Assembly (NCBI GenBank): GCA_021796335.1
Contig: JAJYHZ010000002.1
Span: 192,998-256,997, forward strand
Source: a bacterium
Lineage (GTDB): Bacteria; Patescibacteriota; Minisyncoccia; UBA6257; UBA9933
Reading direction: 5' to 3'
DNA: 64,000 nucleotides
Part shown: positions 10,063 through 60,925 of the stretch, piece after piece
Layout of the letters: every line of letters begins with the position of its first letter
Numbering within the stretch: the stretch's first letter is position 1
Program-made: the position numbers and the translations under genes
The notes under the pieces: model-generated
What the model was told of the DNA's origin: nothing
The model's input: only the letters and a program-made list of their open reading frames with translations
Databases searched by the model: none

Positions 10063-10083
10063 AGTTAGTTTTGCGAATACAAT

Positions 10084-10520: not shown

Positions 10521-10560
10521 TTTTTAGTAATTAGAGAATTAAATAATTAAAAATAAAAAA

Positions 10561-11094: not shown

Positions 11095-11177
11095 GACTAC
11101 AATCTGCAGTCTACGGATTATGGCAAATGAATTACATATTGCTATAGTCTGTAGTCAGTAGACCGTAAGCAGTTTTA

Positions 11178-21215: not shown

Positions 21216-21234
21216 CTAAAATTTCAAATTATCT

Positions 21235-21258
21235 GCCCCGCTTAAAGCGGGGCATTTT
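21235..21258 (+). terminator. rho-independent terminator
   Basis: gccccgc-ttaaa-gcggggc + attttca. Confidence 0.6.
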
Positions 21259-21260: not shown

Positions 21261-21294
21261 ATCGTATATCTTGACGATCGTCAAGATATACGAT
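21261..21294. repeat. palindrome family A copy 1 (atcgtatatcttgacgatcgtcaagatatacgat)
   Basis: perfect 34-bp inverted repeat; variant of 38-bp palindromes at 34471 and 35096. Confidence 0.8.
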
Positions 21295-21727
21295 CATTCA
21301 ATCTATAAACCCCTGGTGCAACCAGGGTTATGTTTGAAGGTGACGCTATATGCATATAATGCAATTAAACACAGTCAAAAAAACAATAATTTTTAGCACA
21401 GGCGTGCCATATAATTGATTTCAATCTCCATAATACCACGCTACGAATAAATTTATATAATTTAGATTAAATAATTTATTAATTATCACAAAGAATAGCC
21501 GGCGATTAAGCCGGCAAAAACAATGCCATCGGATGTCAGTCTGATGGTCGTTTTGAATTATAAGACTCGGTTATCGCCTGAGCTTACTTACCGGCAGGCA
21601 GGCTTGTCAAAGGCATTTTTATATTTAAGCCAAAATTTTATCCCTCGAGAAATTCAGGAAATAAAATTTTAGCAGTTCGTAATTCAAAGCGAGATATTTT
21701 CTCGGATTTATCTGCTATAATAAATTT

Positions 21728-27108: not shown

Positions 27109-27140
27109 TTGCAAAACCCCTCGAAAGAGGGGTTTTGTTT
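27109..27140 (+). terminator. strong rho-independent terminator after S-layer-like gene
   Basis: aaacccctc-gaaa-gaggggttt + tgtttttg. Confidence 0.85.
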
Positions 27141-27182: not shown

Positions 27183-27229
27183 CCAATCAAATTTTGAGCG
27201 ATCGCTCAAAATTTGATTGGTTATCCACA
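27183..27229. repeat. palindrome family B copy 2 (38-bp perfect) immediately followed by TTATCCACA DnaA-box consensus
   Basis: ccaatcaaattttgagcgatcgctcaaaatttgattgg + ttatccaca; ~70 bp upstream of 27301 gene and its TATAAT-like -10. Confidence 0.8.
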
Positions 27230-27300
27230 GAGAAGTTATTTAAAGAATTGCCGTATTATTTGTTATAATTTATTCACATTATATTAATCTTGATAGGGTC

Positions 27301-27852
27301 ATGATAATACATCATATTTTGGAAATAATCAGGGCAGCCGGAATTATTTCGGCTGATGTCGCTTTTACCGATTATCACACTTCTTATAGGAGGATGCGGC
27401 GGATGATGAGATATGGAGTTGATTCTTACTTGGAATTAAACGATTTTAAAAAACATAAGGAGTCCGAGAGAAACAGGTTTAACAGCCTCCTTTGGTATTT
27501 GAAGAAAAAAGGATTGATTGAACGGAAAAAAGGTAATAAATGGAAGATAACGGAAGGCGGAATAAAATGGCTAAAGACGCATTCTCATAAATTGATTCCG
27601 TTTGAAAGCAATGAATTAAAAAAGGGAGAGAAAATAATAATTATTTTCGATATCCCCGAGAAAAGCAAAAAGAAACGAGATTGGCTTAGGAAAAGTTTGG
27701 TTAACATCGATTTTAAAATGCTTCAAAAGAGCGTGTGGATGGGAGATTCGAAATTGCCGGAGGAATTCATTTTGGAAATGAAAAATTTAAACATAATTTC
27801 CTATATCCATATATTTTCGATTAAAGAGAAGGGATCGATTGATTTTAAATAG
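27301..27852 (+). CDS. wHTH + Cas2/VapD-like domain protein (PaaX-like architecture), paralog 1
   Basis: C-terminal IIIFDIPEKSKKKRDWLRKSLVNIDFKMLQKSVWMG matches Cas2 pattern (hhhYDh..KRR.kh.k.L..yG.R.Q.SVF); N-terminal LWYLKKKGLIERKKGNKWKITEGG wing-like; paralog at 34536. Confidence 0.5.
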   Translation: MIIHHILEIIRAAGIISADVAFTDYHTSYRRMRRMMRYGVDSYLELNDFKKHKESERNRFNSLLWYLKKKGLIERKKGNKWKITEGGIKWLKTHSHKLIPFESNELKKGEKIIIIFDIPEKSKKKRDWLRKSLVNIDFKMLQKSVWMGDSKLPEEFILEMKNLNIISYIHIFSIKEKGSIDFK

Positions 27853-27922
27853 AAAGCCTATTTTTTGGAAAACCGCGGACGTAGGATGTAAGCCTGCGGA
27901 TATTTTCGCTTTCGATTTTCTC

Positions 27923-27960
27923 CCAATCAAATTTTGAGCGATCGCTCAAAATTTGATTGG
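27923..27960. repeat. palindrome family B copy 3 (38-bp perfect), immediately downstream of 27301 gene
   Basis: identical to 27183-27220; followed by degenerate box ggatgtccaca. Confidence 0.8.
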
Positions 27961-28215
27961 ATGTCCACATTTGATATTCGGTTTTATTTTTTATAATGGA
28001 ATTAAGCCTTGTGAGGGGGCTGGATATTTTAATTAAATAGTTTTCATTTGCTGTGGAAAGTATTTTAGGGTCTATGAGTATACAGCTCCCTCAGAAATCT
28101 TTTATAAAAATTTTTAATTGAACTACGCCGTTTTCGGCGTATTTTTGGTTGAAAGAATGTTAAGTAATTGCGATTTATGAATTTAAATAACTTTTAGTTG
28201 CGAATCGTGCGCTTT

Positions 28216-28280
28216 GTCATTTTGATTCACTCGCTGGCGAAGAAAGGGATTCTTTCCCGCCTTTGGCGGACCAGGATGAC
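28216..28280. repeat. MITE-like dispersed repeat copy 2 (gtcattttga...cgcctttggcggaccaggatgac)
   Basis: aligns with 13560-13639 copy over both ends. Confidence 0.55.
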
Positions 28281-28318
28281 AGCAAGCAAGTTTGCAGTTA
28301 AAAGTAAATAAATAAAAT

Positions 28319-28858
28319 ATGACTGAATTTAATCAAAACAACAAGAAGTTTAAAAGCAAATATTGGAAATTTGTCGCCGGATTTTTTATTTTAATATTTT
28401 TGGCGATTGCCGGGTATGCTGTTTGGAACAAATATTTCGGTTCTGAAGCTAGGGCTATAAGAGCGAAACAAAAACAAATTCAATTTACTTTGGACGCGCA
28501 GAAAAAATACGAAGAGGCGATGAAAAACGACACGTACGGCGGCAAAACTCCGGAGGAAACTTTACAGATGTTTACGGGCGCTTTAAAGAAGGGTGATATT
28601 GATTTAGCGAGCAAGTATTTTGTTTTAAGAGAAGACGGAAGTGTTGATCCAAAGTGGGTGGAGGGATTGGGAAAAGAAAAAACGGATGGGAGATTGCAAC
28701 AAATTATAGGCATTATTCAAAGGTCAAAATCTGATTCAGCTCAATTAACTGATTACTCAGCTTGGTTTACCGTAGATGATAATTCAGGGATGGCTGAATA
28801 TACAATAATTTTAAATTTAGATAAGCAATCAGGAATATGGAAAATAGAAAGCTTGTAG
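28319..28858 (+). CDS. membrane-anchored hypothetical protein (N-terminal TM, extracytoplasmic domain)
   Basis: single TM WKFVAGFFILIFLAIAGYAVW; 22-bp overlap with downstream giant gene suggests operon. Confidence 0.45.
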   Translation: MTEFNQNNKKFKSKYWKFVAGFFILIFLAIAGYAVWNKYFGSEARAIRAKQKQIQFTLDAQKKYEEAMKNDTYGGKTPEETLQMFTGALKKGDIDLASKYFVLREDGSVDPKWVEGLGKEKTDGRLQQIIGIIQRSKSDSAQLTDYSAWFTVDDNSGMAEYTIILNLDKQSGIWKIESL

Positions 28859-31800
28859 ATTTTTTATTTTTAATTTTAATATTGGTAATTTTTATCGGAT
28901 CGGGTTTTATAAATCAAACGTTTGCGTATGACACGGAAACGCACGCTTATTTGACGAGCGAGATTTTTGATTTTTACAACAAAAATTTTCCGCAAAACAA
29001 ATTGGCTGATGAGTTTAAGAATTATTTGATTGACGGCAGCAGAAATGAGGATAATACGCCGAGATGGATGAATCATTTCTACGACCCCGTGAATAACCGA
29101 GGGCTTACTTGCGATAGCGCGATTGATTTAATTTGCTTAGGTAATTGGGAAAGTTCGAAAATTTGGGCAAATGACAACAATAATCAAAATAGTTTGACCT
29201 ACAAAGTGCCGGCAACAATCGCTTCGACTTTGACTGCGATTGAGCAAAAAAATTTGAGTTTAATTTCAGGCGAAACTGATTTTACCTGGAATGAGGCAAT
29301 TAAAGATTGGATTACTGGCAATAAGGGGAAAGCAATATTTATTCTCGGGCATATTCTGCATCTAATTGAAGATATTTCCGTGCCTGATCATACCAGGAAT
29401 GATTCGCATCCCGGAGACAGCCCTTATGAAAATTATAGCCAGCAATTCACTTTGGCTAATCCGGACCAAAACCTGAATAACAGGATGGTTGGCAAAAATC
29501 CGATAATTTTAAGCGATTTGGGAAATTATTTTGACGAATTGGCAAAATATTCCAATAAATATTTTTACAGCAAAGACACGATTGGAATTCAAAGCGGATA
29601 TGAATTTCCGCAACCGGATTTTACAAAATTAGAGTCAGGTGGGAAGTATTACTATGTTTTAAATAGAGATTCAGATGGCCAAAATTATTACCTCATTACA
29701 AAGAAGTCATTGGGAAATATAATTATTAGTTACCCGAATGACTATGCGTTTGATGACAAAATTTCGTCTTCCTACTGGGCTCTTCTTTCCGTGAAATCGG
29801 TTCAATACGGCGCCGGAGCGATAAATCTTTTCTTTCAGGACGTTGAAAAGGCGAAAAACGATTCGAACTTTATCAAGGCGGATACGGCGGAAAACAAATC
29901 AACTTTTTCCGCAATTTATGACACGGCAAAAACATTCGCAAACAATCTTGGCAATTCTTTGGCTTCGATTTGGACTGCGGCAAAAGGCGTTTTCAGCACT
30001 GATCAAAATTTCAATCAAGTAGCCGAAATTGATTTGCAAAACAATGCGAGCGATTCGAATTTGACCACAACCCAAAATCAAAATAAATCCCGGACAAACG
30101 CCAAAACAGTTTCTTTAAAAACGGATAGCTCGAAAACCAAAACAGATGCCGAGGTGGCAAATTTAAAAGATCAAATTAATAATCTGAAAAATAATATTGC
30201 GGCTTTGGAAAAAGAAAATCAGGCGCTTGTAAAATCGCAATCGCAGACAACCGGGGAGATTTCTAAAAATACCGCGATCGGAACGGCCGGGCAAACGAAC
30301 AATTCATCGCCGGCGCAAGTTTCTTGCGGCTTCAATACAGCTCAATCGCCGAGCCGCAATAAATTAATAATAAACGAAGTGGCCTGGATGGGTTCAAGTG
30401 CAAGCGCGAGCGACGAGTGGATTGAGTTAAAAAATATTTCCGGCGGAGATTTAAATATTTCCGGATGGCAATTAATAAGTCAGAATAATCAGATAGAAAT
30501 TAATTTAGAAGGTTTAAAAAATCAAAAAATCGGCGCGGGAAGATTTATTTTGCTGGAGCGGACCGATGATAATTCCGCCATAGGCGTTCCGGCGGATCTG
30601 ATCTACAGCGGCAGTTTGGCCAACACAAACACGGGATTGCGATTATTCGATAGCGATTGCAATTTAACTGATGAAGTTTTTGCTAATCCGAATTGGCCGG
30701 CTGGCGATAATTCTTCAAAGAAAACAATGGAAAGGGATACAAACGGCTTAAACTGGCACACTTCCGGCAATGTCGGCGGAACTCCGAAACAAGAAAATTC
30801 TTCGGCATCTTTCGCTCCAAGCGGCGGATACACAACATTTTCTCCGGCGAATACCGGCCAAAATCAAAATAATGCCGTTCAGTCGGCAGCGGCTCCGCAA
30901 TATTATCCCGTAAAAATAACGGAAATCATGTACAATCCCGAAGGAAGCGATACGGACAGGGAGTGGATAGAAATTTATAATGGCGGGATGTCGGCTGTCG
31001 ATTTAACCGGTTGGAAAATCAATGAAGGCAATGCGAATCATGGCTTGAAATTGTCCGACATCAAAACTTTAAATACGGGAGAGTACGCCGTTATAGCAAG
31101 CAATAAGGCGGGATTTCTTTCAGACTTTCCCGATTATTCGGGAAATATTTTTGAAAGCGCGATTTCTTTAAATAATGGCGGAGAATCGATTGCTTTGAAA
31201 AACGGAGATTTGAAAATTGACGAAATAAATTATTCGCCGGAAACGGGAGCTGACGGAAATGGAAAAAGCCTGCAGTTAATAGGTGGCTTTTGGAAAGAAG
31301 GAACGCCGTCGCCGGGAAAAGAAAATGCGCCGGACGCAGCGGACAAAAATCCGACAGCAGTTTTTGTTTTTAGTCCCGATAATCCGACAGCTGGGGGCGA
31401 GATAAGTTTCGATGCCTCTTCCTCGACTGATTCGGATGGAAATATTGTTGAATATGATTGGGATTTCGGCGACGGCATTTTTGCCACTACAAGCAGCAAT
31501 GCGATTACTCACACATATGCGAATCCCGGAGATTTCATGATTAGTCTGACAGTTTTTGATGATCAAAGCGTTTCGTCATCGGCAACTACTTCGATTTCAA
31601 TAAGACCAGCCGAGGATAATAACATAAATAATTCCGCAAGTCCCGCAAATATTTTTATAAGCGAGATTGTTTATGACGGCGAAGGCGATGACAGCGGAAA
31701 AGAATTTGCGGAATTGTATAATGCGTCCGATCAGACCGATTTAACAGGCTGGGGCTTAAAATATAAAAAAGGAGACGCGACTTCAGCCGAAACCTTGGCG

Positions 31801-33036
31801 GTTTTTGGAAACAATAGCAATGACATCACTGTGATTCCGAAAAACGGATTTCTACTGATCGGCTTAAATAATTATGACGCAGCTAATTATAACCAGGCTG
31901 CGGCCGATATTTTAAGATCAACGAGTTTGCCAAATGGAACAGCTACGGAAACTGTCGACGTAATTTTATACGATGAGAACGGGAATAAAATTAATAGCGT
32001 AAATTATAATGCGGATTCCGCTGCTAGCGGGGCAAGTTTGGAGCGGAGGGCTTTGGTGAACGGCGAATGTGTTATTGCACAAAACGAAAACGAATATTCG
32101 GGAAACGGATGCGATTCGAATAACGTTCTCGACAAACGGGAAATTCCAAATCCGCAGAATTCAAAAAGCCAAAGCGAGCCGAGAACTCCGCCGCCTGCGC
32201 CGGAAAATTTCACCATTAATTTTGAAGAAAATCCCATGCCGGAAGGATATAAACTTGATTGGAAACCATTGGATTTAAATTTAAGCTGGGGGGCGCCGCA
32301 AGGGTACGAAAATTTAAATTATGAAATAAAGGATATAAGCGATTCGGCAAATCATTTTCCCGACATTAAAGCAAAGGCGACTTCGGCAAAGATTTACATC
32401 AATGAGGTCGGCCGGGATTATAAATTTGAAATTTCGGCGATTGACGATATTGGTTTAAAATCCAGTTCAACGCAGTTTTCCATAAATGTTCCCAGTTTTT
32501 TTAAATCCGTTTCGTTTTATTCCAATAGCACATCTTCTTATTCACTTGATTTGAGTTGGGATAAATATCCGTTCATTCCCGATCCAAAAGCCGGAAGAAA
32601 AGTTGTAATTTTTTATTATAACCAGGATGCGCCGGCAATAGGCGATATCAAATGGATTTTCGGGAATGATTATAAAATGTGGGGATTGATCGGACCTGCA
32701 GGCGCCTTGTCTTTGGAATATCCGAATTGCTCGACTCTTTATCCGACTAAAGGAAAATCTTTAATACTTCCCGACAGTCCCAAGTACTGCAACGTTGATA
32801 CGGATCAGGGGAAATACGCAATTAATTACAATTTATTAAATAATCAAAAAATTTCTTTGACCGTATCGAGCAATCAATTTAATTCCGCTCCGGAATCCGG
32901 AAAGGATTATGTGACAATGGCGTTTTATTCTTTTATCCCCGGATATGAGCCGAATGATTACGGAACAAGAATAGTGGGAGTTGATAAAACTAAATATTAT
33001 TTTGAAGGAATTAAAGAAAATTTAAATCCCCTTTGA
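28837..33036 (+). CDS. giant secreted multidomain protein: Zn-dependent phospholipase C/S1-P1 nuclease-like domain + coiled coil + three lamin-tail domains (LTD) + PKD domain + C-terminal beta domains
   Basis: HFYDP and HLIEDISVPDHTRND (Zn-PLC-like); coiled coil ~aa 440-470; LTD motifs INEVAWMGS...DEWIELKNISGGDLNISGWQL, ITEIMYNPEGSDTDREWIEIYNGGMSAVDLTGWKI, ISEIVYDGEGDDSGKEFAELYNASDQTDLTGWGL; PKD VFVFSPDNPTAGGEISFDASSSTDSDGNIVEYDWDFGDG. Confidence 0.75.
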   Translation: MENRKLVDFLFLILILVIFIGSGFINQTFAYDTETHAYLTSEIFDFYNKNFPQNKLADEFKNYLIDGSRNEDNTPRWMNHFYDPVNNRGLTCDSAIDLICLGNWESSKIWANDNNNQNSLTYKVPATIASTLTAIEQKNLSLISGETDFTWNEAIKDWITGNKGKAIFILGHILHLIEDISVPDHTRNDSHPGDSPYENYSQQFTLANPDQNLNNRMVGKNPIILSDLGNYFDELAKYSNKYFYSKDTIGIQSGYEFPQPDFTKLESGGKYYYVLNRDSDGQNYYLITKKSLGNIIISYPNDYAFDDKISSSYWALLSVKSVQYGAGAINLFFQDVEKAKNDSNFIKADTAENKSTFSAIYDTAKTFANNLGNSLASIWTAAKGVFSTDQNFNQVAEIDLQNNASDSNLTTTQNQNKSRTNAKTVSLKTDSSKTKTDAEVANLKDQINNLKNNIAALEKENQALVKSQSQTTGEISKNTAIGTAGQTNNSSPAQVSCGFNTAQSPSRNKLIINEVAWMGSSASASDEWIELKNISGGDLNISGWQLISQNNQIEINLEGLKNQKIGAGRFILLERTDDNSAIGVPADLIYSGSLANTNTGLRLFDSDCNLTDEVFANPNWPAGDNSSKKTMERDTNGLNWHTSGNVGGTPKQENSSASFAPSGGYTTFSPANTGQNQNNAVQSAAAPQYYPVKITEIMYNPEGSDTDREWIEIYNGGMSAVDLTGWKINEGNANHGLKLSDIKTLNTGEYAVIASNKAGFLSDFPDYSGNIFESAISLNNGGESIALKNGDLKIDEINYSPETGADGNGKSLQLIGGFWKEGTPSPGKENAPDAADKNPTAVFVFSPDNPTAGGEISFDASSSTDSDGNIVEYDWDFGDGIFATTSSNAITHTYANPGDFMISLTVFDDQSVSSSATTSISIRPAEDNNINNSASPANIFISEIVYDGEGDDSGKEFAELYNASDQTDLTGWGLKYKKGDATSAETLAVFGNNSNDITVIPKNGFLLIGLNNYDAANYNQAAADILRSTSLPNGTATETVDVILYDENGNKINSVNYNADSAASGASLERRALVNGECVIAQNENEYSGNGCDSNNVLDKREIPNPQNSKSQSEPRTPPPAPENFTINFEENPMPEGYKLDWKPLDLNLSWGAPQGYENLNYEIKDISDSANHFPDIKAKATSAKIYINEVGRDYKFEISAIDDIGLKSSSTQFSINVPSFFKSVSFYSNSTSSYSLDLSWDKYPFIPDPKAGRKVVIFYYNQDAPAIGDIKWIFGNDYKMWGLIGPAGALSLEYPNCSTLYPTKGKSLILPDSPKYCNVDTDQGKYAINYNLLNNQKISLTVSSNQFNSAPESGKDYVTMAFYSFIPGYEPNDYGTRIVGVDKTKYYFEGIKENLNPL

Positions 33037-33103
33037 TTCTATTCAAAGAGGACTGAATAAAAATCGCCGTCCCGTTGGGCGGGACGGCGGAGTCCGAGGT
33101 AGA

Positions 33104-33661
33104 TTATTTGCTTTCTTTTTTCGGGACCGGAGATGAGACGGCTTCTATTTTAAGATCTTCGTCTAAAAGGATTATTCTGTCGGCCCTGTCTTTTAATTCT
33201 CTGGAAATCGTGCCTTTTGACGACACAATCGTGACTTTAATATCAATATTTTTCAGAGAATCAATAAGATACGCAAAGTCGGAATCTCCCGAGATGAGCA
33301 CGACTTCGTTGCAATCGCGACGCCAGGCATGACGGCAGATATCAGTGGCGATTTCAACATCGAAGTTCGCCTTATTTTTGATACTACCGTTACTGAGACT
33401 GATCGTCTTGATCTCTTTTGCGACAACCCTGAAGCCGGAAAGTTCAAGATAGTCATAAAATTTTTTCCAGCCGGGATTTTCGGGTTTTTCTATATAGATC
33501 GATTTCTCGACCAAGTCTGACCCGAGCGTCACTGTTTCTACGAGCTTGTTAAAGTCAAGCCTAACCTGGGTCAAGCTCATTTTTTTTGCCTGGATGATTG
33601 CGGCAAAGGCCGCTCCGATGTTTGCTTTGTCTATCAGCACGACAGACTTTGATTGCGGCAT
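33104..33661 (-). CDS. NYN-domain (LabA-like/DUF88) PIN-fold nuclease
   Basis: VVLIDKANIG...DVEIATDI...VVLISGDSDFAYLI acidic-residue pattern of NYN domains. Confidence 0.7.
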   Translation of the reverse strand: MPQSKSVVLIDKANIGAAFAAIIQAKKMSLTQVRLDFNKLVETVTLGSDLVEKSIYIEKPENPGWKKFYDYLELSGFRVVAKEIKTISLSNGSIKNKANFDVEIATDICRHAWRRDCNEVVLISGDSDFAYLIDSLKNIDIKVTIVSSKGTISRELKDRADRIILLDEDLKIEAVSSPVPKKESK

Positions 33662-33973
33662 AAAAAACCTCCTTTCATACGGGAAAAATTAATTCCAGAT
33701 CATGCGTATAAACCGGTAAATTTTTACCCCCTCTCTTTTTAAGATTAAAAACGGGCTATAGAAGACATTATTAAAAAAGAGGTTGTTTGTCAAAGCGTCC
33801 GGCGCTGTTCGGAAGTATGGAATCTAATTATTTTGTTATACTGAACCATTAGCTGTCGGAAAAACGCCTTGTAAAATATAAATTGAAGCAACTAGAGATT
33901 TTTCGCAAAACTTAAAATGACTTTCCAAACAGCGCTAAAGCGGCGGGAGAATATTTTATGCTAAAATAAGCGC

Positions 33974-34462
33974 ATGGTTGCGATTTTATACAATATTCGA
34001 AGTTTGCATAATGTGGGGTCGATTTTTAGAACTGCGGATGCGGCGGGAGTAAAGAAAATCTATCTTTGCGGATTAACGCCGACGCCTTATGACGAATTCG
34101 GAAAAAAACGGTCGCAATTGGCAAAAGTTTCCTTGGGAGCGGAAGATTATATTCCGTGGGAGAAAATCGGAAGTGCACGATCGCCAATAGCGACTTTAAG
34201 GCTAATCGATAATTTAAAAAAAACAGGGTACAAAATTTTGGCAATCGAGCAATCAAAAAATTCAGTTCCGTATTACAAATTTGCTTCTACACGAAGAAAC
34301 AATCAAAAGATGGTTTTAATCGTGGGGAATGAAGTGAAAGGGCTATCAAAGACAATTTTAAACAGAGCGGATAAAATCCTGGAAATTCCGATGCACGGAA
34401 AAAAAGAATCATTGAATGTGGCGGTGGCATTCGGAATTGTTGTTTTTGGAATCAAAAAATAA
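33974..34462 (+). CDS. SpoU/TrmH-family (SPOUT) RNA 2'-O-methyltransferase
   Basis: LYNIRSLHNVGSIFRTADAAGV ... LIVGNEVKGLS ... IPMHGKKESLNVAVAFGIV SPOUT motifs. Confidence 0.75.
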   Translation: MVAILYNIRSLHNVGSIFRTADAAGVKKIYLCGLTPTPYDEFGKKRSQLAKVSLGAEDYIPWEKIGSARSPIATLRLIDNLKKTGYKILAIEQSKNSVPYYKFASTRRNNQKMVLIVGNEVKGLSKTILNRADKILEIPMHGKKESLNVAVAFGIVVFGIKK

Positions 34463-34470
34463 TTTACCTA

Positions 34471-34508
34471 TTATCGTATATTTTGACGATCGTCAAAATA
34501 TACGATAA
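34471..34508. repeat. palindrome family A copy 2 (ttatcgtatattttgacgatcgtcaaaatatacgataa), 28 bp upstream of 34536 gene
   Basis: perfect 38-bp inverted repeat. Confidence 0.85.
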
Positions 34509-34535
34509 GATGAAAAATATTAATTATTAATTAGA

Positions 34536-35093
34536 ATGAAAGGAGAAAAACGATTAAGAATTTTAGAGGGAATTGAATTAGGGATGGATACTATCGGAGA
34601 TTTAGTTTTTATATTTAGTTTGCCGTACGGAACTTCCTTTTCTAAAATGAGATATCTGCTTGCAAATAGGGATAGATTTAAAAAATCAGACAATAATAAT
34701 GAAAAAAAGAGATTCCAGGATTTAATGTATCATTTGCGAAGAGACGGTCTAATCGACGAATCCAAAAGAAAGCTCATTTTAACTTTAAAAGGAAAAAAAT
34801 TTTTAAATAGAAAAAAATTTACAACTTTTTCATATAAAAAAGAAAGCGACAATATAATAAAAATAATAATATTTGATATTCCCGAATCTCAGAGAAGAAA
34901 AAGGGTGTGGTTGAGGCAGGCTATAAAAACAATGGGGTTCCAAATGATACAAAAAAGCGTCTGGTTGGGTAAAGTAAAAATCCCGGAAGAATTTTTAAAT
35001 GATTTAAAAAATATGAATCTGATGAATTATATAGAGATTATCGGAATTACAAAGATAGGAACTTTAAAACAAATGAAATATTTTAATCTTTAA
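34536..35093 (+). CDS. wHTH + Cas2/VapD-like domain protein (PaaX-like architecture), paralog 2
   Basis: IKIIIFDIPESQRRKRVWLRQAIKTMGFQMIQKSVWLG aligns with paralog 1 and Cas2 pattern; N-terminal LMYHLRRDGLIDESKRKLILTLKGKKFL wHTH-like. Confidence 0.5.
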   Translation: MKGEKRLRILEGIELGMDTIGDLVFIFSLPYGTSFSKMRYLLANRDRFKKSDNNNEKKRFQDLMYHLRRDGLIDESKRKLILTLKGKKFLNRKKFTTFSYKKESDNIIKIIIFDIPESQRRKRVWLRQAIKTMGFQMIQKSVWLGKVKIPEEFLNDLKNMNLMNYIEIIGITKIGTLKQMKYFNL

Positions 35094-35095
35094 TC

Positions 35096-35133
35096 TAATC
35101 GTATATTTTGACGATCGTCAAAATATACGATTA
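35096..35133. repeat. palindrome family A copy 3, 3 bp downstream of 34536 gene stop
   Basis: taatcgtatattttgacgatcgtcaaaatatacgatta perfect 38-bp inverted repeat. Confidence 0.85.
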
Positions 35134-35307
35134 GGGCATGCGTGGGGAGCGCATGTCTAGCCAGATTTTTTTAAGTCCAATATTTTTAAGTCCAATATTT
35201 CGCGCAGTTTTTCGGTATTTTGCCTGGGCCTTTTAAATTTGTTATAATTAATTTAAATAAGTGCTTCCTGGGATAGTATTCTTTTAAAAAATAAACTTCT
35301 TAACTTT

Positions 35308-39627: not shown

Positions 39628-40334
39628 AGGGTATTATTTTGGCGGGAGGAAATGGAACACGTTTAAGGCCATTGACTCTTATAACAAATAAGCATCTTTT
39701 GCCGGTTTATAATAAGCCGATGATTTTATATCCCTTAGAAACTTTAAGAAAATCGGGCATTGATGAAATTATGATAGTTTGCGGGAAAGAACATGCCGGA
39801 CATTTTATGAATTTTCTGAGTTCTGGGGAAAATTATGGAGTAAAATTATCTTATGCACTTCAGCATGATGCTGGGGGAATAGCTGAGGCATTGGGATTAG
39901 CAGAGGATTTTGCTGATAATGGTAAAATTGCAGTTATACTGGGGGACAATATTTTTGAAGATGATTTTTCGAATAATATTAAATCTTTTAGGAAACAAAA
40001 TGGAGCAAAGGTTTTTATAAAAAAAGTTACTGATCCGACTAGGTTTGGTATTGCAGTAATAAAAGAAGGGAAAATAATCAGTATTGAAGAGAAGCCTAAA
40101 AATCCTAAATCGAATTTTGCAACAGTCGGGTTTTATCTTTACGATTCCGATGTTTTTAAAAAAATTAAAAATCTAAAACCATCCAAAAGAGGGGAATTGG
40201 AAATAACGGATGTCCATAATATGTACATAAAAGAAAATAATTTATCCTATGGTGTTGTTAAGGGATTTTGGTCAGATGCCGGCACATTTGAATCTTTATT
40301 TAAGACCTCTAAGTGGGCACTATCTAGAAAATAA
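39624..40334 (+). CDS. rfbA: glucose-1-phosphate thymidylyltransferase (short form)
   Basis: MKGIILAGGNGTRLRPLT nucleotidyltransferase motif; position within rml operon; 236 aa lacks sedimentation/allosteric C-terminus. Confidence 0.75.
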   Translation: MKGIILAGGNGTRLRPLTLITNKHLLPVYNKPMILYPLETLRKSGIDEIMIVCGKEHAGHFMNFLSSGENYGVKLSYALQHDAGGIAEALGLAEDFADNGKIAVILGDNIFEDDFSNNIKSFRKQNGAKVFIKKVTDPTRFGIAVIKEGKIISIEEKPKNPKSNFATVGFYLYDSDVFKKIKNLKPSKRGELEITDVHNMYIKENNLSYGVVKGFWSDAGTFESLFKTSKWALSRK

Positions 40335-40886
40335 ATGGCAGCTAATTTTATACAAACAAATTTTAGAGAATCTTTTATTATTGAACCCAAAGCTTTTGAA
40401 GACCATAGGGGTTATTTTATGGAGTCTTATAATATTAAAGATTTTCAAAACAAAGGGATTACTGATAAATTTATTCAGGAGAATTTTTCTTTTTCCCAGA
40501 AAAACGTTTTGAGGGGAATGCACTTCCAAAAATCACCTCATGAAACAAGCAAATTTATTCGTTGTGTGGAAGGGGAAATTTACAATGTTATGATAGATAT
40601 TCGCAAAAACTCGTCGACTTTTGGTAACTGGCAAGGGTTTTTCTTATCCAAAGAAAACAGAAAGATGCTTTACGTGCCTAAAGGATTTGCCAATGGATTT
40701 TGTGCCATAAGCAATGGAGCGGGAGTTGCTTATATGGTGGATGAGTTATATTATCCTGATTTTGCTGGAATTATTAGATGGGATGATCCTGATATTGGTA
40801 TTTCTTGGCCAGTCAAAAATCCAGTTCTTTCTGAACAAGACAAAAACGCTCCATTTTTAAAGGAAATTATTGATTTTCTAGGGTAA
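40335..40886 (+). CDS. rfbC: dTDP-4-dehydrorhamnose 3,5-epimerase
   Basis: FIIEPKAFEDHRGYFMESYN ... LRGMHFQ ... cupin fold motifs of RmlC. Confidence 0.85.
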   Translation: MAANFIQTNFRESFIIEPKAFEDHRGYFMESYNIKDFQNKGITDKFIQENFSFSQKNVLRGMHFQKSPHETSKFIRCVEGEIYNVMIDIRKNSSTFGNWQGFFLSKENRKMLYVPKGFANGFCAISNGAGVAYMVDELYYPDFAGIIRWDDPDIGISWPVKNPVLSEQDKNAPFLKEIIDFLG

Positions 40887-40903
40887 GTTGCTTATTCTAA
40901 AAT

Positions 40904-41731
40904 ATGGATTTTTCAAAAACCTTAATTACTGGTGGCGATGGGATGGTCGGCAGCTATGTCGATTTTGGTGTTAAAACAAATAAAAGATCTCTAGATATAA
41001 CAGATTTAAAAGAAGTCTTACTTGTGGTAAATAAATATAAACCTAAAGCCATATTACATTTAGCGGCAGAGACCGATGTTGATCGCTGTGAGCGTGATCC
41101 ACAATTTGCTTATTTTATAAATTCAATCGGAACTTATAATATTGCTTTAGCTGCCAAGCAGATTGGGGCAAAACTGGTTTATGTATCTACAAATGCTATC
41201 TTTGATGGAAAGAAAAAAACTCCTTACCAAGAAAATGATGCACCCAATCCGCAAAATTATTATGGTCATTCTAAATTTTTGGGAGAAGCAGCAATAAAAG
41301 AATTATTAGAGGACTACCTCATTGTTAGAGCTTCTTGGATGTTTGGTGGAGGGCCAGCAAAAGATCAAAAGTTTGTTGCAAAAATTATCAATCAAATAAA
41401 AAATCCAGAAATTAAAGAAATTAAAGCAGTCACAGATCAAATAGGTGCCCCTACTTCTGGGAAAGATTTGGTAAAAGGAATAAAATTTCTTTTAGAAAAA
41501 GATGAGAAAGGAATTTTTAATTTGCCAAATTCTGGAATAGCTTCAAGGTATGATGTCGCTAAATTTATAATAAATACATTAAGACCAGAAGTTAATGTGA
41601 TTCCCGTGGATTCTTCTTATTTTAATTTAGATGCTAAGAGAATTGGGAATGACGGTTTAATATCAAAAATTAATATAATGCGTTCATGGCAGGATGCTAT
41701 GGCAGAATATTTAAAAGAAGAATGGATTTAA
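40904..41731 (+). CDS. rfbD: dTDP-4-dehydrorhamnose reductase
   Basis: short-chain reductase GGDGMVGS, ILHLAAETDVDRCERDP, STNAIFDG RmlD motifs. Confidence 0.8.
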   Translation: MDFSKTLITGGDGMVGSYVDFGVKTNKRSLDITDLKEVLLVVNKYKPKAILHLAAETDVDRCERDPQFAYFINSIGTYNIALAAKQIGAKLVYVSTNAIFDGKKKTPYQENDAPNPQNYYGHSKFLGEAAIKELLEDYLIVRASWMFGGGPAKDQKFVAKIINQIKNPEIKEIKAVTDQIGAPTSGKDLVKGIKFLLEKDEKGIFNLPNSGIASRYDVAKFIINTLRPEVNVIPVDSSYFNLDAKRIGNDGLISKINIMRSWQDAMAEYLKEEWI

Positions 41732-41748
41732 AATAATTAATCAAAGCT

Positions 41749-42981
41749 ATGAAAGAAGAATTTGTTCATAATAATAAATGTAAAAGTTGCGATGGTGTTA
41801 ATTTAGTGAAGTTTTTGGATTTGGGATCTATGCCTCCAGCCAATGCTTTTTTACCTAAAGATGAACTGAATAATGCCGAAGATAAATTTCCTTTGGCTGT
41901 TTATTTTTGTCAGGATTGTGCCATGGTCCAACTTTTGGATGTTGTTGACCAAGATATTCTTTTTGGCCGCTATAACTATTTAACATCAGCTAGTAAACCA
42001 TTGGTGGATCATTTTATCCAAATGGGGAATGAATTAGTAAATAAATTCATTAAATCCAGAGATGATTTAGTGGTTGAGATTGGAGGAAATGATGGGGTAT
42101 TAGTTGGTGCTATTAAAGATAAATGCAGAGTTTTAAATGTGGAACCTGCAAGCAATATTGCGGAAATTTCTAGAGAAAAGGGGATAGAGACCATTAATAA
42201 ATTTTTCAATAAAGATTTAGTGGAGGAAATTTTGAAGAAATATGGCAATGCTAAAGTTATTGTCGCCAATAATGTTATGGCTCATATAGATGATTTAAAG
42301 AGCGTATTTGAAGGCATAAAAATTTTAATTGGAGGGGATGGGGTTTTTGTGTTTGAAGTTCACTGGGTTGGTAATTTGTTGGGCGAAGGCGGATTTGATC
42401 AAATTTATCATGAGCATCTTTATTACCACTCTTTAATTTCTTTGAGGAATTTTGTAAAGCAATTTGGTTTGAATATTTTTGATATTGAAACGGTCCCTAT
42501 ACATGGCGAATCAATGCGAGTTTATGTAAGTAAAAATATGCCAATAAGTGAAAATGTTGAAAAATTTTTAACAAAGGAAAAACAACTCGGACTTGATAGA
42601 GCGGAAACATTTTTAAATTTTTCAAAAAAAGTTGAAGATAATAAAATAAGATTAAAATCGATTCTTAACGAATTAAAAAAAGAAAATAAAAAAATAATTG
42701 GCTATGGTGCGCCCGCAAAAGGCAATACATTACTTAATTATTTTGAAATAGACAGCACTATTTTAGGTTACATAATTGATACAACGCCTCTAAAACAAGG
42801 AATGTACACGCCTGGAACACATATTATCGTGAGTTCGCCAGATAGAATAAAAGAAGAATTACCGGATTACATTTTGCTTTTAGCTTGGAATTATGCAGAT
42901 GCTATTTTAAATAAAGAAAAAGAATTGCGAGAAAGAGGCGTGAAATTTATTATCCCCGTGCCTGAAGCAAAAATTGTGTAA
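41749..42981 (+). CDS. NDP-hexose C-methyltransferase-like (TylC3/Methyltransf_13+14 architecture) with N-terminal zinc ribbon
   Basis: CKSCDG...CQDCAM zinc-ribbon, class I MTase motif VVEIGGNDG, C-terminal domain typical of sugar C-methyltransferases; 410 aa. Confidence 0.55.
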   Translation: MKEEFVHNNKCKSCDGVNLVKFLDLGSMPPANAFLPKDELNNAEDKFPLAVYFCQDCAMVQLLDVVDQDILFGRYNYLTSASKPLVDHFIQMGNELVNKFIKSRDDLVVEIGGNDGVLVGAIKDKCRVLNVEPASNIAEISREKGIETINKFFNKDLVEEILKKYGNAKVIVANNVMAHIDDLKSVFEGIKILIGGDGVFVFEVHWVGNLLGEGGFDQIYHEHLYYHSLISLRNFVKQFGLNIFDIETVPIHGESMRVYVSKNMPISENVEKFLTKEKQLGLDRAETFLNFSKKVEDNKIRLKSILNELKKENKKIIGYGAPAKGNTLLNYFEIDSTILGYIIDTTPLKQGMYTPGTHIIVSSPDRIKEELPDYILLLAWNYADAILNKEKELRERGVKFIIPVPEAKIV

Positions 42982-43026
42982 TTTTTATCTATTGCTTCAA
43001 GCAAGATTTCTTTAACTATCATAATT

Positions 43027-43977
43027 ATGAAGAGTATTTGTAATATTTGTAAACATGACGATGCAAGGCTAATTTTTTATACAAAGGATAATCGTTATAA
43101 TCCAAAAAATAATAAAAAATTTCGTCTTATACAATGTCTTAACTGTGGGTTGGTTTATATAAATCCTTTACCGGATGATTCCGCTATTAAAGATTCTTAT
43201 GGATTTAATTATTTTAAATTAAAGGATGGATCTAAACCAAAAGGAAGAATAATTCAGATTTTAAAATTCATTAAAAAAAAATTCTCTCTAAACATTTATC
43301 CTACCTACAAATTTTATAGACTTAAAAATAAATTTTTCAGTAATAATTCCGGGAAATTTCTTGATGTCGGATGTGCTACGGGATTATTAGATGAATTTCT
43401 AATAAAAGAATTTCCTAGGTGGAAATTTTTCGGAATTGAGCCTAGTGAGGGAGCTTTTAAAAGAGCTTCACGAGTGAATGAATTTAAAGTTTTTAAAGGT
43501 GCTTTAGAAGACGCGAAATATCCATCCGATTATTTCGATATTATTTTAATAAATCAAGTTTTAGAACATGTTTATGATCCTGCCTCAGTAATAAATAAAT
43601 GTTCTCACATTTTAAAGTCGACCGGGAAATTAATTATTGCTGTCCCAGATTTTAATTCTTTCAGCTCTAAAATCTTTGGTAAATATTGGTATCATCTCGA
43701 TGTTCCCAGGCATTTATATCACTTTAATATAAAATCGTTAGAACTGATCCTTGAAAGGAATGGATTTCTTATTCAGAAGAAAGAGAAAGAATCTTTACCC
43801 GGATCTTTTGTAAAAAGCATTTTTCTTTTATTCGGTTCAAACCCTGATTCATTAGATAGTTCGTATGCATGGGTTGCAGTTAAAATTTTATTTAACCCTA
43901 TTTTAAATTTTTTGAATATCTTATTTGAAAAATTTGGTATTTCCAATGGAATTTTTATTATTGCAATAAAGAATTAA
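43027..43977 (+). CDS. class I SAM-dependent methyltransferase with N-terminal Cys4 zinc ribbon
   Basis: CNICKHD...CLNCGLVY, motif I FLDVGCATG, Methyltransf_11/23-like. Confidence 0.6.
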   Translation: MKSICNICKHDDARLIFYTKDNRYNPKNNKKFRLIQCLNCGLVYINPLPDDSAIKDSYGFNYFKLKDGSKPKGRIIQILKFIKKKFSLNIYPTYKFYRLKNKFFSNNSGKFLDVGCATGLLDEFLIKEFPRWKFFGIEPSEGAFKRASRVNEFKVFKGALEDAKYPSDYFDIILINQVLEHVYDPASVINKCSHILKSTGKLIIAVPDFNSFSSKIFGKYWYHLDVPRHLYHFNIKSLELILERNGFLIQKKEKESLPGSFVKSIFLLFGSNPDSLDSSYAWVAVKILFNPILNFLNILFEKFGISNGIFIIAIKN

Positions 43978-43979
43978 TT

Positions 43980-44915
43980 ATGCCTAAAGTTTTTATTCTG
44001 ATTTTACATTGGCAAAAATATGATATTACGAGGGAATGTCTAGAATCATTTAAAAAATTAGATTATCCAAATTATAAGATTGTGGTTTTAGACAATGCAT
44101 CATCTAATGATTCGGCGCGCAGATTAGAACAAGAATTTCCACAGAACTTATTTATTTTCAATAAAGAAAACAAAGGCTATGGGGCGGGTATGAATCCAGG
44201 AATAAAATATGCTTTGGATAACGGTGCAGATTATATTTTTCTTTTAAATAACGATGTCATTGTTAGCAAAAATGATTTTTTAGTTAGACTGATTAACTTG
44301 ATGGAAAGTAATAAAAAGGTCGGTATTGCTGGCCCTAAATTATTATTTAGAGATATGACATATCAAAGATCTTATAGAAATTATTTCTTTTCCATAGCTC
44401 TTGGATTCTGGGCACCTGAAAAAGTGTTTATTTTTTTTAGAAAGATATTTGGCATACTTCCAAAAGACAATATTACTCACAAAGTTGATTGGCTAAATGC
44501 TGTTGCTTTGTTATTTAAAAGAGAAGTGTTTGAAAAAATTGGTTTGATGGATGAAAGATTTTTTTTGGGCGCTGAAGATGTCGATTTATCATTAAGCGCT
44601 AAAAATAAAGGATGGGAGACTTGGTATTGTGCTGAGTCAGAGTTAGTGCACTTAAGTTTTGTCAGTCACGACAATGAAGGCGGTGCCGGATATGATAAAT
44701 ATTGGATAGAGAGTACAATATTATTTTTAGAAAAACATTACTCTAAGATTACAGTTTTCGTAATAAGATTTTTAATTGTTTTAGGTTTATTTTTGAGAGG
44801 GCTGCAGTGGTCAATTCTTGGATTATTTAATCAATCTTATTTTTTAAGAGCAAAAAATTTTTTTAGAATAAGCTACTTTTCATTGATTATTAGACCTAGA
44901 TTTGCCAATAAATGA
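43980..44915 (+). CDS. family 2 glycosyltransferase
   Basis: VVLDNASSNDS, DYIFLLNNDV (DxD) GT-A motifs. Confidence 0.7.
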   Translation: MPKVFILILHWQKYDITRECLESFKKLDYPNYKIVVLDNASSNDSARRLEQEFPQNLFIFNKENKGYGAGMNPGIKYALDNGADYIFLLNNDVIVSKNDFLVRLINLMESNKKVGIAGPKLLFRDMTYQRSYRNYFFSIALGFWAPEKVFIFFRKIFGILPKDNITHKVDWLNAVALLFKREVFEKIGLMDERFFLGAEDVDLSLSAKNKGWETWYCAESELVHLSFVSHDNEGGAGYDKYWIESTILFLEKHYSKITVFVIRFLIVLGLFLRGLQWSILGLFNQSYFLRAKNFFRISYFSLIIRPRFANK

Positions 44916-45814
44916 TTATGAATCCTTTAGTATCTATATTGGTTTTAAATTGGAATAATTTTGATGACACTAATAATTGTGTGACTTCATTATTATCACT
45001 AAATTATAACAATTTTAATATTTTAATTATTGATAATGGTTCTACCGACAATTCTTTTATAAGACTAAAAAATAAATTCCGCGATGAGAGAATCATTTTT
45101 TTAAAAAATAAAGAAAATTTTGGTTATGCTGGAGGTATAAATATAGGCATAAAGTATGTTTTTGAAAAATTATCTTCCGATTTCATTTGGATTCTAAATA
45201 ACGATATTATGGTTGATAAAGATTCTTTAAAATTTTTAATCGATGCTGTAAATAAAAATAAGAAAATTGGTATTGCTGGTCCAACGATTTATTTGGCTGG
45301 AACTAAAAAAATAATGGAACAATATTATCGTTTAAATTTACTTTTTGGACGTTTTTTGGTTAAAACCAATCTTAATGAGAATGAAGTAGTTAAAATAGAA
45401 AATAAAAAAAATAATTACATAGGAGGAGCCGCTGTTTTTTTACGAAAGGAAATTCTAAATAAAATTGGCTATATTCCCGAAGAATATTTTATGTATAATG
45501 AGGATATAGCATGGCATCAAAAAATAAAAAATACTCAATTAGAATATTTATATGTTGGTCCAGCAAAGGTATGGCATAAAAAAGGCGCTTCTAGCGGTGG
45601 GAAAAAAACTATAATGCCTGATTATTATGACTCCAGAAATTTTCTTTATTTTATAAAAAAATTTTATCCGCTTTGGTTGCCTTATGAATTTTTTATGTCA
45701 ATTATTAATAAGGTCTTTCCCAAAGTGTTAAGAGGAGAATGGGAAAGACTCAGATATGTTTTTATGGGATTTAGAGACTTTGCAAAAGGTAAAATGGGAA
45801 AATTCGAAAATTAA
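44912..45814 (+). CDS. family 2 glycosyltransferase
   Basis: ILIIDNGSTDNS, FIWILNNDIMVD GT-A motifs. Confidence 0.7.
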   Translation: MIMNPLVSILVLNWNNFDDTNNCVTSLLSLNYNNFNILIIDNGSTDNSFIRLKNKFRDERIIFLKNKENFGYAGGINIGIKYVFEKLSSDFIWILNNDIMVDKDSLKFLIDAVNKNKKIGIAGPTIYLAGTKKIMEQYYRLNLLFGRFLVKTNLNENEVVKIENKKNNYIGGAAVFLRKEILNKIGYIPEEYFMYNEDIAWHQKIKNTQLEYLYVGPAKVWHKKGASSGGKKTIMPDYYDSRNFLYFIKKFYPLWLPYEFFMSIINKVFPKVLRGEWERLRYVFMGFRDFAKGKMGKFEN

Positions 45815-45816
45815 CT

Positions 45817-46614
45817 ATGCCAAAGGTTTCGATAATAACCCCCTTTTATAAAGGAGAAAAATATATTGGTAGGGCTATTGAAAGTATTTTAAATCAAAAT
45901 TATAAAGATTTTGAATATCTTATCGTTGATGATGGGTCAAAAACTAATTTTAATAATTATCTAACTAATAAATATGGAGGCAAAATTATTTATATAGAAA
46001 AAAGCAATGGTGGTCAGGCTTCGGCAGTAAATGTTGGGATAAAAAAAGCAAGGGGGGAATTTATTGCTTTCTGTGATCAAGATGATTGGTATTTGGATGA
46101 TAAATTATTAAAACAAGTCAATTTTTTAAAAAGCCATCCCGAAATTGCTATGGTTTATTCTGATGTCTTAATGGGAGATGAGAATGGTAAAATACTTGAT
46201 AAAACATGGATGCAATCTAGAAAAGTACGATTTTGCAGTGGAGGTTATGCCGATTGTGCGGCCAAATTATTTAAAAGGAATTTTATTCCCGCACCTTTGG
46301 CAGTTATGATTAGGAAATCTATTTTTGATCAAATAGGTTTATTTAATGAAAAATTTTCTAGCGCTTATGATTATGATTTTTGGTTTAGAATTCTAGAAGC
46401 CGGAATGCGTATTGGGAATATGGAAAATAAGTCAGCTGTTTGGAGAACTCATAGCGGCCAAGAAAGCAGGAATATAAAAAAGGCTAAAATAATGCAAATT
46501 GGAATTTTAAGAAGTTTTTTAAAGAGAAATCCAAAATTTGTATTAAACCACCCATTTTTAACTGCCTATAAAATCGTAAAATCATATATCGCTTTAATAT
46601 TCAGTTTGATATGA
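45817..46614 (+). CDS. family 2 glycosyltransferase
   Basis: VSIITPFYKGEKYIGRAIESILNQ, LIVDDGS, FCDQDD. Confidence 0.7.
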   Translation: MPKVSIITPFYKGEKYIGRAIESILNQNYKDFEYLIVDDGSKTNFNNYLTNKYGGKIIYIEKSNGGQASAVNVGIKKARGEFIAFCDQDDWYLDDKLLKQVNFLKSHPEIAMVYSDVLMGDENGKILDKTWMQSRKVRFCSGGYADCAAKLFKRNFIPAPLAVMIRKSIFDQIGLFNEKFSSAYDYDFWFRILEAGMRIGNMENKSAVWRTHSGQESRNIKKAKIMQIGILRSFLKRNPKFVLNHPFLTAYKIVKSYIALIFSLI

Positions 46615-46686
46615 ATCTATGTTTAAAAAAAAGTATATAAATTTAATAAGGAAATTTGTTGGCAATATAGAAAGAGAAAGAGTGGG

Positions 46687-47832: not shown

Positions 47833-47867
47833 ATTCGATAGTTTAATTTCGTTTCAAATAAAAATAA

Positions 47868-60924: not shown

Positions 60925-60925
60925 A

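Follow-up and report, generated by a model that had tools for sequence, protein, structure and literature searches.

A 64,000-nt stretch of a Patescibacteriota genome (contig JAJYHZ010000002.1, positions 192,998 to 256,997 of the forward strand; in the following "the window") carries two paralogous genes, here called R-A and R-B, each of which is bracketed by its own pair of long palindromes centred on CGATCG. We found these palindromes to be associated with a large family of R-like genes and their outer arms to co-evolve with the proteins; the fold of the proteins is similar to that of the repressor PaaX, and one subfamily is accompanied by a conserved partner operon. The sites, the gene association, the co-evolution, the fold similarity and the partner operon are established here. 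From them we infer DNA binding, a division of labour between the protein domains, the sign of regulation and a role for the sites at 3’ ends. With a probability of roughly 55%, we read the R proteins as truncated PaaX-type dimers that bind private operators of ~36–40 bp, autoregulate, and control or insulate adjacent operons. To our knowledge almost nothing is known of gene regulation in Patescibacteria (Candidate Phyla Radiation, CPR), whose genomes are tiny and encode few recognisable transcription factors.

Across the window (37.8% G+C) six perfect palindromes of 34–40 bp were detected, none of which has a strand and which fall into two families, A and B. The longest perfect palindrome otherwise present in the window measures 16 bp, and 100 dinucleotide-preserving shuffles gave a maximum of 22 bp and a mean of 17 bp. 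R-B (27301..27852, plus strand) is preceded by B2 (27183-27220, 38 bp) and followed, 71 bp past its stop codon, by B3 (27923-27960, 38 bp), which has the same sequence as B2 and is located upstream of a two-gene operon, X-GIANT. A2 (34471-34508, 38 bp) lies 28 bp upstream of the start codon of R-A (34536..35093, plus strand), and A3 begins 2 bp past the R-A stop codon. An earlier sequence-only reading of this DNA had placed these palindromes correctly and had rightly called B2 and B3 identical, but A3 starts at 35095 rather than 35096 and spans 40 bp (35095-35134) rather than 38 bp. Nor are A2 and A3 identical: they differ at a single position, mirrored in both arms (TTATCG... versus TAATCG...). 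Solo copies are B1 (9625-9660, 36 bp), located between pyrF (end 9574) and an open reading frame (ORF) of 98 aa at 9766-10062, and A1 (21261-21294, 34 bp), which is distinguished from A2 and A3 by a mirrored T>C / A>G change. The core ttttga[g]CGATCG[c]tcaaaa, noted before as common to A and B, is correct.

A third, decayed family C, which the sequence-only reading had not noticed, has retained the CGATCG centre and the outer arms CAGTATACAAT, with an asymmetric spacer. C1 (10133-10168, no strand, outer arms GTATAC) follows a terminator-like hairpin at 10084-10109 and precedes a promoter-like site at 10187-10214; C2 (60064-60099, no strand) is symmetric at 12 of 14 positions. The 98-aa ORF is flanked by palindromes from two different families, B1 and C1. 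No cognate gene for family C was found within the 83 kb of genome examined, which hold three copies of A, three of B and two of C, and neither further palindromes nor family genes occur within ~9 kb beyond each window end. The hexamer CGATCG itself is not over-represented in the window (20 sites against 13.4 expected, 8 of the 20 inside long palindromes). At the Rfam gathering threshold the whole window yielded five tRNAs only and no RNA element at the palindromes. A replication origin was considered and rejected, since in the window the GC skew is positive throughout and the DnaA boxes are not clustered.

R-B (183 aa) and R-A (185 aa) are 36% identical (E=3e-26) and consist of an N-terminal winged helix and a C-terminal PaaX_M/Cas2-like domain. 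Pfam PaaX_M (PF20803), which Pfam describes as “PaaX protein central Cas2-like domain”, matches both above the gathering score (E=1.4e-13 for R-B and 6.3e-12 for R-A), and Cas2 (PF09827) matches more weakly (E=5e-6 and 1e-5, respectively). That the two are diverged paralogues of one family, with winged helix-turn-helix (wHTH) and Cas2-like parts and a private palindrome each, had been proposed from the sequence alone and is borne out. Winged-helix models gave weak matches only (HTH_45, Mrr_N, MarR-type). The Pfam models for the PaaX N-terminus and for PaaX_C did not match the R proteins, which stop ~70 residues past the motif FDIPE. The NCBIfam equivalog model for PaaX (TIGR02277) scored 15.9 bits against a cut-off of 264.55, and the cas2 model TIGR01573 scored 30.9 bits for R-A against a cut-off of 24.5, covering the first half of the model only.

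An AlphaFold model (pLDDT 79) shows a winged helix at the N-terminus, with a helix-strand-helix-helix arrangement and a beta-hairpin wing in residues 2–94, and a beta-alpha-beta-beta-alpha-beta domain at the C-terminus. When the PDB was searched with Foldseek, the top match across both domains was E. coli PaaX (8a39), followed by Cas2 structures at ranks 2–19. A sequence search of the PDB gave weak wHTH and Cas2 matches only, so that the link to PaaX required the fold search. We regard the R family as a truncated, PaaX-like one, whose DNA binding is probably PaaX-like as well. R-B carries the motifs FDIPE...KRDWLR...LQKSVW. In an alignment of 31 sequences all invariant residues except Gly87 of the winged-helix domain belong to the Cas2-like domain; FDIPE contributes its D, P and E, LQKSVWxG its Q, S, V, W and G, and two Arg complete the set. 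The Asp of FDIPE aligns with that of YDIT in Sulfolobus Cas2 SSO1404, which we take to be the catalytic residue.

A hidden Markov model (HMM) of the family detected only R-A and R-B in the window. A third paralogue at ~9.5 kb, suggested by the inverted-repeat hits I1 and I15, was rejected on this ground; because the HMM finds only two genes, the similarity near 9.5 kb is assigned to the palindrome and its DnaA-box flank.

A profile search of 1.84 billion representatives, counted as clusters at 50% identity, returned 852 proteins at E<=1e-30, a number that rises to 3115 at E<=1e-10; nearly all of the members listed have 180–215 aa. For the genome scan a narrower family alignment was used, the first one being too diverse. 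All 79 retrieved genome loci (79/79) derive from metagenome-assembled genomes (MAGs) of Patescibacteria, several of which hold 2–4 paralogues. The gene keeps its synteny across species whose neighbouring proteins are 58–70% identical, and it is chromosomal and stable. No homologue was found among the viral contigs of IMG/VR and PADLOC reported partial Cas2 matches only, and a phage or defence origin was rejected.

We then scored the symmetry of every CGATCG in the 79 loci and the window over positions 4–17 from the dyad. Within 250 bp of family genes, 111 of 120 such sites are palindromic (at least 8/14 symmetric positions) and 42 perfect, and 221 distant sites follow a background distribution (mode 4/14) except for ~17 palindromic solo copies. 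Of the ~78 family genes 47 lie between two CGATCG-centred palindromes, 12 have one on a single side and 18 have none, and some genes have alternative centres (TGATCA, CAATTG, CATATG, CGGCCG). The accompaniment seen in the window thus recurs in related genomes. The density of long palindromes is 1.9 per kb beside the gene and 0.044 per kb elsewhere, a difference of ~40-fold. A generic high-copy repeat independent of the gene, comparable to a repetitive extragenic palindromic (REP) element or to the highly iterated palindrome HIP1, had been named as the finding that would speak against the association; it was rejected on account of this enrichment, the apparently low copy number per family and the chance frequency of CGATCG.

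In a sample of 68 palindromes, pre-selected as near-perfect so that the values are partly built in, symmetry is 94–100% to position 17 and reaches background by position 22. Because symmetry decays in this way, the functional unit would measure ~34–40 bp. Sequence information common to the loci is limited to the centre, a position 4 that is never T, and A/T-rich positions 6–11. With position 4 of the left arm never T, TCGATCGA never occurs in the 68 CGATCG palindromes; a weak family-wide consensus further comprises positions 8–9, which are never G, position 10, rarely G, and position 13, mostly A. Extra or nested palindromes were seen beside R at L028 (9761 and 9857), L044 (7582, 7802 and 8648) and L136 (1570, 2440 and 2551), as tandem duplicates 96 bp apart, as one family nested in another or as spacer variants sharing outer arms.

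The arms are distinct at every locus, also between paralogues within one MAG, and their divergence follows that of the proteins. Protein pairs of at least 60% identity have 12.4 of 17 arm positions in common, chiefly in the outer part, compared to ~6/17 in all bins below 60%. When outer-arm distance was regressed on domain distances for 56 gene/palindrome pairs, it depended on winged-helix-domain distance (beta 0.52; 0/2000 permutations, p<0.0005) and not on Cas2-like-domain distance (beta -0.02, p=0.57), and the protein blocks correlating best with the arms were the second helix and the recognition helix, which precedes the wing. The palindrome centre and the Cas2-like motifs are nearly invariant. 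A helix-turn-helix that recognises the variable outer arms would be expected to produce such a pattern, and recognition of the invariant centre would in that case fall to the invariant domain or to a conserved host factor. At syntenic loci the centres flanking the gene are lineage-specific, TGATCA in L017 and L021 and CGATCG in L019. A solo copy after the same neighbouring gene changes in concert with them: its centre is TGATCA in L021 and, in decayed form, CGACCG in L019, and no solo copy was seen at the corresponding position in L017.

Copies of one family at the same locus differ by 54 mirrored double changes, compared to ~3 expected if the arms mutated independently at the observed asymmetry rate (52 versus 17 in a stricter set). 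Of the 111 palindromic gene-proximal sites 69 are imperfect, and the asymmetry is concentrated in the spacer (positions 5–7 and 10–11) and rarest at positions 12–16. In our reading the outer half-sites and the centre are under selection, and the spacer may be symmetrised neutrally, as is reportedly possible by quasi-palindrome template-switch mutagenesis (Ripley's model, Lovett's studies in E. coli). Since asymmetries are tolerated in the spacer, a strict hairpin or cruciform requirement is disfavoured.

This bears on the explanation that the palindromes act as nucleic-acid structures in their own right, as bidirectional terminators, RNA-stability hairpins or supercoil-absorbing cruciforms, and that their linkage to R is incidental. 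The mirrored compensatory changes do preserve the self-complementarity of the arms, most copies lie just after 3’ ends, convergent spacers included, and B1 alone among the window palindromes passes a scan for intrinsic terminators. However, a stem as such would need its spacer as much as its outer arms and centre, and the opposite is observed; the symmetry is of Watson-Crick type on both strands with no sign of G-U tolerance, and neither the 40-fold density at R genes nor the co-evolution of the arms with the wHTH domain fits an incidental linkage. Furthermore, A1, B2, B3 and C1 each directly follow a separate, canonical terminator-like hairpin (located at 21234-21254 for A1 and at 27111-27138 for B2), and no T-tract was found in the flanks of the 68 palindromes. 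A role of the palindromes as terminators was rejected for these two reasons, and the explanation as a whole appears very improbable.

With respect to promoters, the centre of A2 contributes TTGACG, the -35 element of a promoter-like site TTGACG-17-TAAGAT at 34483-34511; a protein bound to A2 would therefore occlude this promoter. The dyad of B2 lies ~75 bp upstream of the start site deduced from an extended -10 element TGTTATAAT at 27261-27269, a promoter read by eye, and that of B1 ~57 bp upstream of the start deduced from TATAAT at 9688-9693. Altogether B1, B2, B3 and C1 are located upstream of promoter-like sites, some of them read by eye, with dyads at about -57 to -76. A3 ends ~110 bp upstream of the -10 element of the ugd/polysaccharide cluster. 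The sites thus probably occupy the boundaries of transcription units, mostly in untranscribed DNA.

A further line of evidence is the X-GIANT operon downstream of B3. Gene X (28319..28858, plus strand) encodes a membrane-anchored protein of 179 aa without a significant Pfam match and is the partner of B-type R genes. The second gene, GIANT (28837..33036, plus strand), encodes a secreted or surface protein of 1399 aa with LTD and PKD domains. Homologues of X (E 1e-14 to 1e-56) lie at most two genes from R in 15 other loci, and where the contig continues, a giant gene of ~1200–1900 aa nearly always follows X. R and X-GIANT are arranged in tandem (12 loci), divergently (L019, L021), convergently (L014) or with X-GIANT upstream of R (L050), and R-specific palindromes are found at the junctions between the two, and also 3’ of GIANT in L053, L051, L050 and L019. 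Because the association is conserved through these rearrangements, it argues for a functional link, most simply a regulation of the surface-protein operon by R. The sequence-only reading had taken the two R cassettes to delimit a 7-kb island, which we could not confirm: composition and GC content of 28–34 kb are ordinary, the first two genes are the conserved partner operon of R-B, and the two cassettes are independent.

Taken together we propose the following mechanism. R proteins would be “mini-PaaX” proteins composed of a winged helix and a Cas2-like dimerisation domain, without the C-terminal ligand domain of PaaX, and each dimer would bind its own palindrome of ~36–40 bp. The variable helix-turn-helix would read the variable outer arms at ~12–18 bp from the dyad, the invariant Cas2-like dimer would be placed over the invariant CGATCG centre, and the A/T-rich spacer would not be read base by base, its symmetry being kept largely by neutral template-switch correction of quasi-palindromes during replication, for which no special enzyme would be needed. 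Binding to the upstream site, which for A2 overlaps a promoter, would result in autoregulation of R, and the remaining sites would control or insulate adjacent transcription units. The B-type target would be the X-GIANT surface-protein operon with its sites at both ends; the A-type target may be the polysaccharide cluster.

Several observations weigh against this proposal and partly concern the word operator. The dyad of the downstream palindrome is located mostly 20–65 bp past the R stop codon, and this palindrome is present irrespective of the direction of the next gene (co-directional in 29 cases, convergent in 18). In a gene-independent search of JGI metagenomes for the A/B core ATTTTGA[N]CGATCG[N]TCAAAAT we obtained 62 loci, most of them with full perfect palindromes, and only ~12 had a family gene nearby; a single palindrome was found on at least 5 contigs of one metagenome, and perhaps 5–10 copies per family exist in a genome. 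The solo copies occupy tandem (24), convergent (6) and divergent (4) spacers in background proportions (15% for convergent spacers), at ~70 bp from the preceding 3’ end compared to ~145 bp from the next start codon. Because solo copies occur in all spacer types and closer to 3’ ends, simple promoter-operator logic does not account for every site. Outside the X-GIANT subfamily the genes beside R are housekeeping genes of many kinds, with 125 Pfam families seen in 138 neighbouring genes. The perfect symmetry along the full length also exceeds what a dimeric repressor needs, and the retained Cas2 Asp together with the invariant polar residues leaves the R proteins open to an enzymatic role. Of the co-evolved operators proposed from the sequence alone, co-evolution is confirmed by the arm and wHTH comparisons, and the designation of the sites as operators is not, given a downstream palindrome that is indifferent to the direction of the next gene.

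Alternatively the palindromes could be sites at which R or X-GIANT is inverted, excised or re-inserted, either by the Cas2-like domain of R acting at the CGATCG centre or by host recombination, with solo palindromes as footprints or landing pads. The suggestion made before that the palindromes are cassette boundaries or recombination sites retains some support here. Their architecture of inverted arms around a 6-bp symmetric centre resembles lox or dif sites, two identical palindromes are direct and inverted repeats at once, and the Cas2 Asp is conserved. Between the related MAGs of L043 and L028 a nucleotide homology of 78% is confined to the palindrome-gene-palindrome unit, with the outer edge of the downstream palindrome as its limit, and a second locus pair of the same MAGs is syntenic with flanks of 84–91% nucleotide identity. 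The four orders and orientations of R and X-GIANT are those that inversions between adjacent palindromes would produce, and palindromes are present at the junctions; these four states stem from few independent events, however. Against recombination stands the constant orientation in three syntenic orthologue sets and in all contigs of the organism, and the 236-kb ENA metagenome contig to which the window belongs is continuous through all sites. R has no recombinase fold, its Cas2-like domain belongs to a class without known strand-transfer chemistry, no tyrosine or serine recombinase is encoded in or beside the cassettes, and inversion or excision products were not observed.

Contigs of the same organism from other samples also end at or near palindromes, which would suit inversion or excision: in window coordinates L142 ends at 27902, L143 at 27955 and L145 at 35092, L149 starts at 60148, and the 673-bp contig L146 (34450-35122) spans exactly A2 to A3. 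L057 begins with a perfect 142-bp fold-back (1-142) centred on CGATCG. Such ends and the fold-back are expected of short-read assembly at perfect palindromes and are probably artefacts of it. Weighing these points, we regard recombination at the palindromes as unlikely.

A different way to account for the solo copies is to view R as a domesticated or selfish protein that spreads or maintains private palindromic repeats, in the manner of REP sequences and their associated tyrosine transposases (RAYTs), the so-called REPtrons. As in those systems, a single-copy gene lies between two copies of a repeat of which others are scattered between genes, mostly after 3’ ends and regardless of gene orientation, separate paralogues are paired with separate repeat families, and the palindrome recurs on several contigs of one metagenome, most loci lacking the gene. 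The gene and its palindromes also evolve faster than their surroundings: in L006 versus L020 and in L024 versus L046 the family gene shows 67–76% nucleotide identity and the flanks 84–91%, and the palindrome spacers differ. The regulator gene with its sites is the fastest-evolving part of the neighbourhood. Yet copies per family appear to be few instead of hundreds. Pfam, NCBIfam and the fold search detected PaaX_M/Cas2 and wHTH domains only, not an HUH/Y1 transposase, so that membership among REPtrons was rejected. A selfish repeat is also difficult to reconcile with a solo copy kept at the orthologous position across deep divergence, with a gene that is syntenic across species, and with a conserved partner operon suggesting a host function; insertion polymorphism was not seen. 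We therefore consider spread or maintenance of private repeats by R quite unlikely.

A related and equally speculative idea, to which we attach little credence, is that R proteins are sequence-programmed enzymes which nick or recombine their private palindromes at CGATCG by means of the Cas2 Asp, making the palindrome-gene-palindrome and X-GIANT units invertible or transposable. If true, episymbiotic Patescibacteria would possess a system for the phase variation or shuffling of their giant surface proteins, and R would represent a free-living relative of the Cas2 module acting on repeat DNA.

Several features of the window and of the family loci were observed alongside these results. Of 145 distinct palindromes in unrelated genomes, 9 have a perfect DnaA-box 9-mer (TTATCCACA / TGTGGATAA) directly at their outer edge, 20–34 bp from the dyad. 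In the window TTATCCACA abuts B2 as a perfect 9-mer (27221..27229, plus strand) and B1 on the minus strand (9615-9623), and a variant with two mismatches, ATGTCCACA, abuts B3 (27961-27969); in other loci such boxes were located at L006 10647, L015 5810, L020 5188, L034 10695, L050 4322, L053 3246 and L091 170. Among all 7-mers in palindrome flanks those of the DnaA box show the strongest enrichment (~10-fold), and several boxes lie between the downstream palindrome and gene X. Gene X appears to have a leader of ~315 nt (28003-28318), which contains a terminator-like hairpin at 28124-28141 followed by TTTTTGG and could be an attenuator; Rfam has no match in this leader. The 430 bp between A1 and rpiB (21295-21727) show several hairpins and a consensus-like -10 element CATATAATG at ~21352, lack both an Rfam match and any ORF of 90 aa or more, and may encode an unannotated small RNA or leader.

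R-A precedes a cluster of ugd, Wzy, rml and glycosyltransferase genes. This polysaccharide cluster, which begins just after R-A and A3 and comprises Wzy_C, rml genes, methyltransferases and glycosyltransferases, is O-antigen-like and coincides with a region of low GC content at 40000-48000 (0.28–0.33 compared to 0.38 overall), and the low-GC block is probably horizontally acquired or hypervariable. Besides X, the sole Pfam family recurring among the neighbours of family genes is Pyr_redox_2 (thioredoxin-reductase or TrxB-like), with 11 of 138 neighbours in L001-L079. ORFs of at least 900 aa were found within two genes of the family gene in 19 of 78 cases, with ~9 expected.

If the R proteins are indeed PaaX-type regulators, the predicted binding site of each family member can be read from the sequence, which would provide a map of orthogonal protein/DNA pairs and a proposed recognition code of helix-turn-helix against outer arm. 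The family is large, and genomes usually hold several paralogues. For at least one subfamily there is a link to operons of giant surface proteins, whose probable role is attachment to the host. What a Cas2 domain does outside of CRISPR, with its catalytic Asp intact and tethered to repeat-like palindromes, is a puzzle. On the practical side, contigs in short-read assemblies of these organisms end at such perfect palindromes, which apparently interrupt the assembly.

Among known systems Cas2 and VapD have in common with R the ferredoxin-like fold, the Asp at the end of beta-1 (FDIPE versus YDIT) and the motif QxSV[FW]. In contrast to Cas2, R is fused to a DNA-binding domain and matches only the first half of Cas2 models, and its repeats are two palindromes ~700 bp apart and not a CRISPR array. 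That R is Cas2 proper was rejected, as neither cas1 nor other cas genes nor a CRISPR array was seen in the window; cas1 is absent from the ORF lists and Pfam tables for 1-11,328, 24,536-45,093 and 52,755-64,000 and for ~9 kb beyond each end, and a direct-repeat scan of the whole window found no array. REP sequences and their doublets (REPINs) with RAYT genes resemble R loci in that the gene is bracketed by a palindromic repeat dispersed between genes near 3’ ends, with one repeat family per paralogue; R differs by its fold, which is unrelated to HUH/Y1, by apparently few copies, and by palindromes that are longer, often perfect and conserved at orthologous sites. The sites of loxP, FRT and dif are similar in size (~34–40 bp) and in having inverted arms around a central region of 6–8 bp. 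R sites have arms of 14–17 bp around their invariant 6-bp centre, but this centre is symmetric and hence confers no directionality, and no recombinase is encoded in the cassette. With HIP1 of cyanobacteria (GCGATCGC) the sites have the core CGATCG / GCGATCGC in common, family B containing GAGCGATCGCTC; HIP1, however, is an 8-mer with thousands of copies per genome, whereas here CGATCG outside long palindromes occurs at chance frequency.

The closest relative is PaaX (8a39, 3l09), the GntR-type repressor of phenylacetate catabolism, in which a winged helix likewise precedes a Cas2-like middle domain. PaaX represses its own gene from an operator of 39 bp, the inverted repeat TGATTC-N27-GAATCA (PMC9493321), a geometry that appears compatible with R sites spanning ~36–40 bp. 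R proteins (~185 aa) are shorter than PaaX (~305 aa) and do not possess PaaX_C, the domain binding phenylacetyl-CoA. They score far below the NCBIfam cut-off and do not qualify as PaaX by C-terminal domain, equivalog score or context, no paa genes being present beside R in the window or among the 138 flanking genes. In the literature searched we found no description of the family or its palindromes. Unlike PaaX, R has sites that are fully palindromic, share an invariant CGATCG centre and lie on both sides of the gene, and genomes hold many paralogues. The full-length private palindromes with this centre, the bracketing of the gene itself, the sites at operon 3’ ends, the multiple orthogonal paralogues and the link to a giant surface-protein operon are the features that are new with respect to the known systems.

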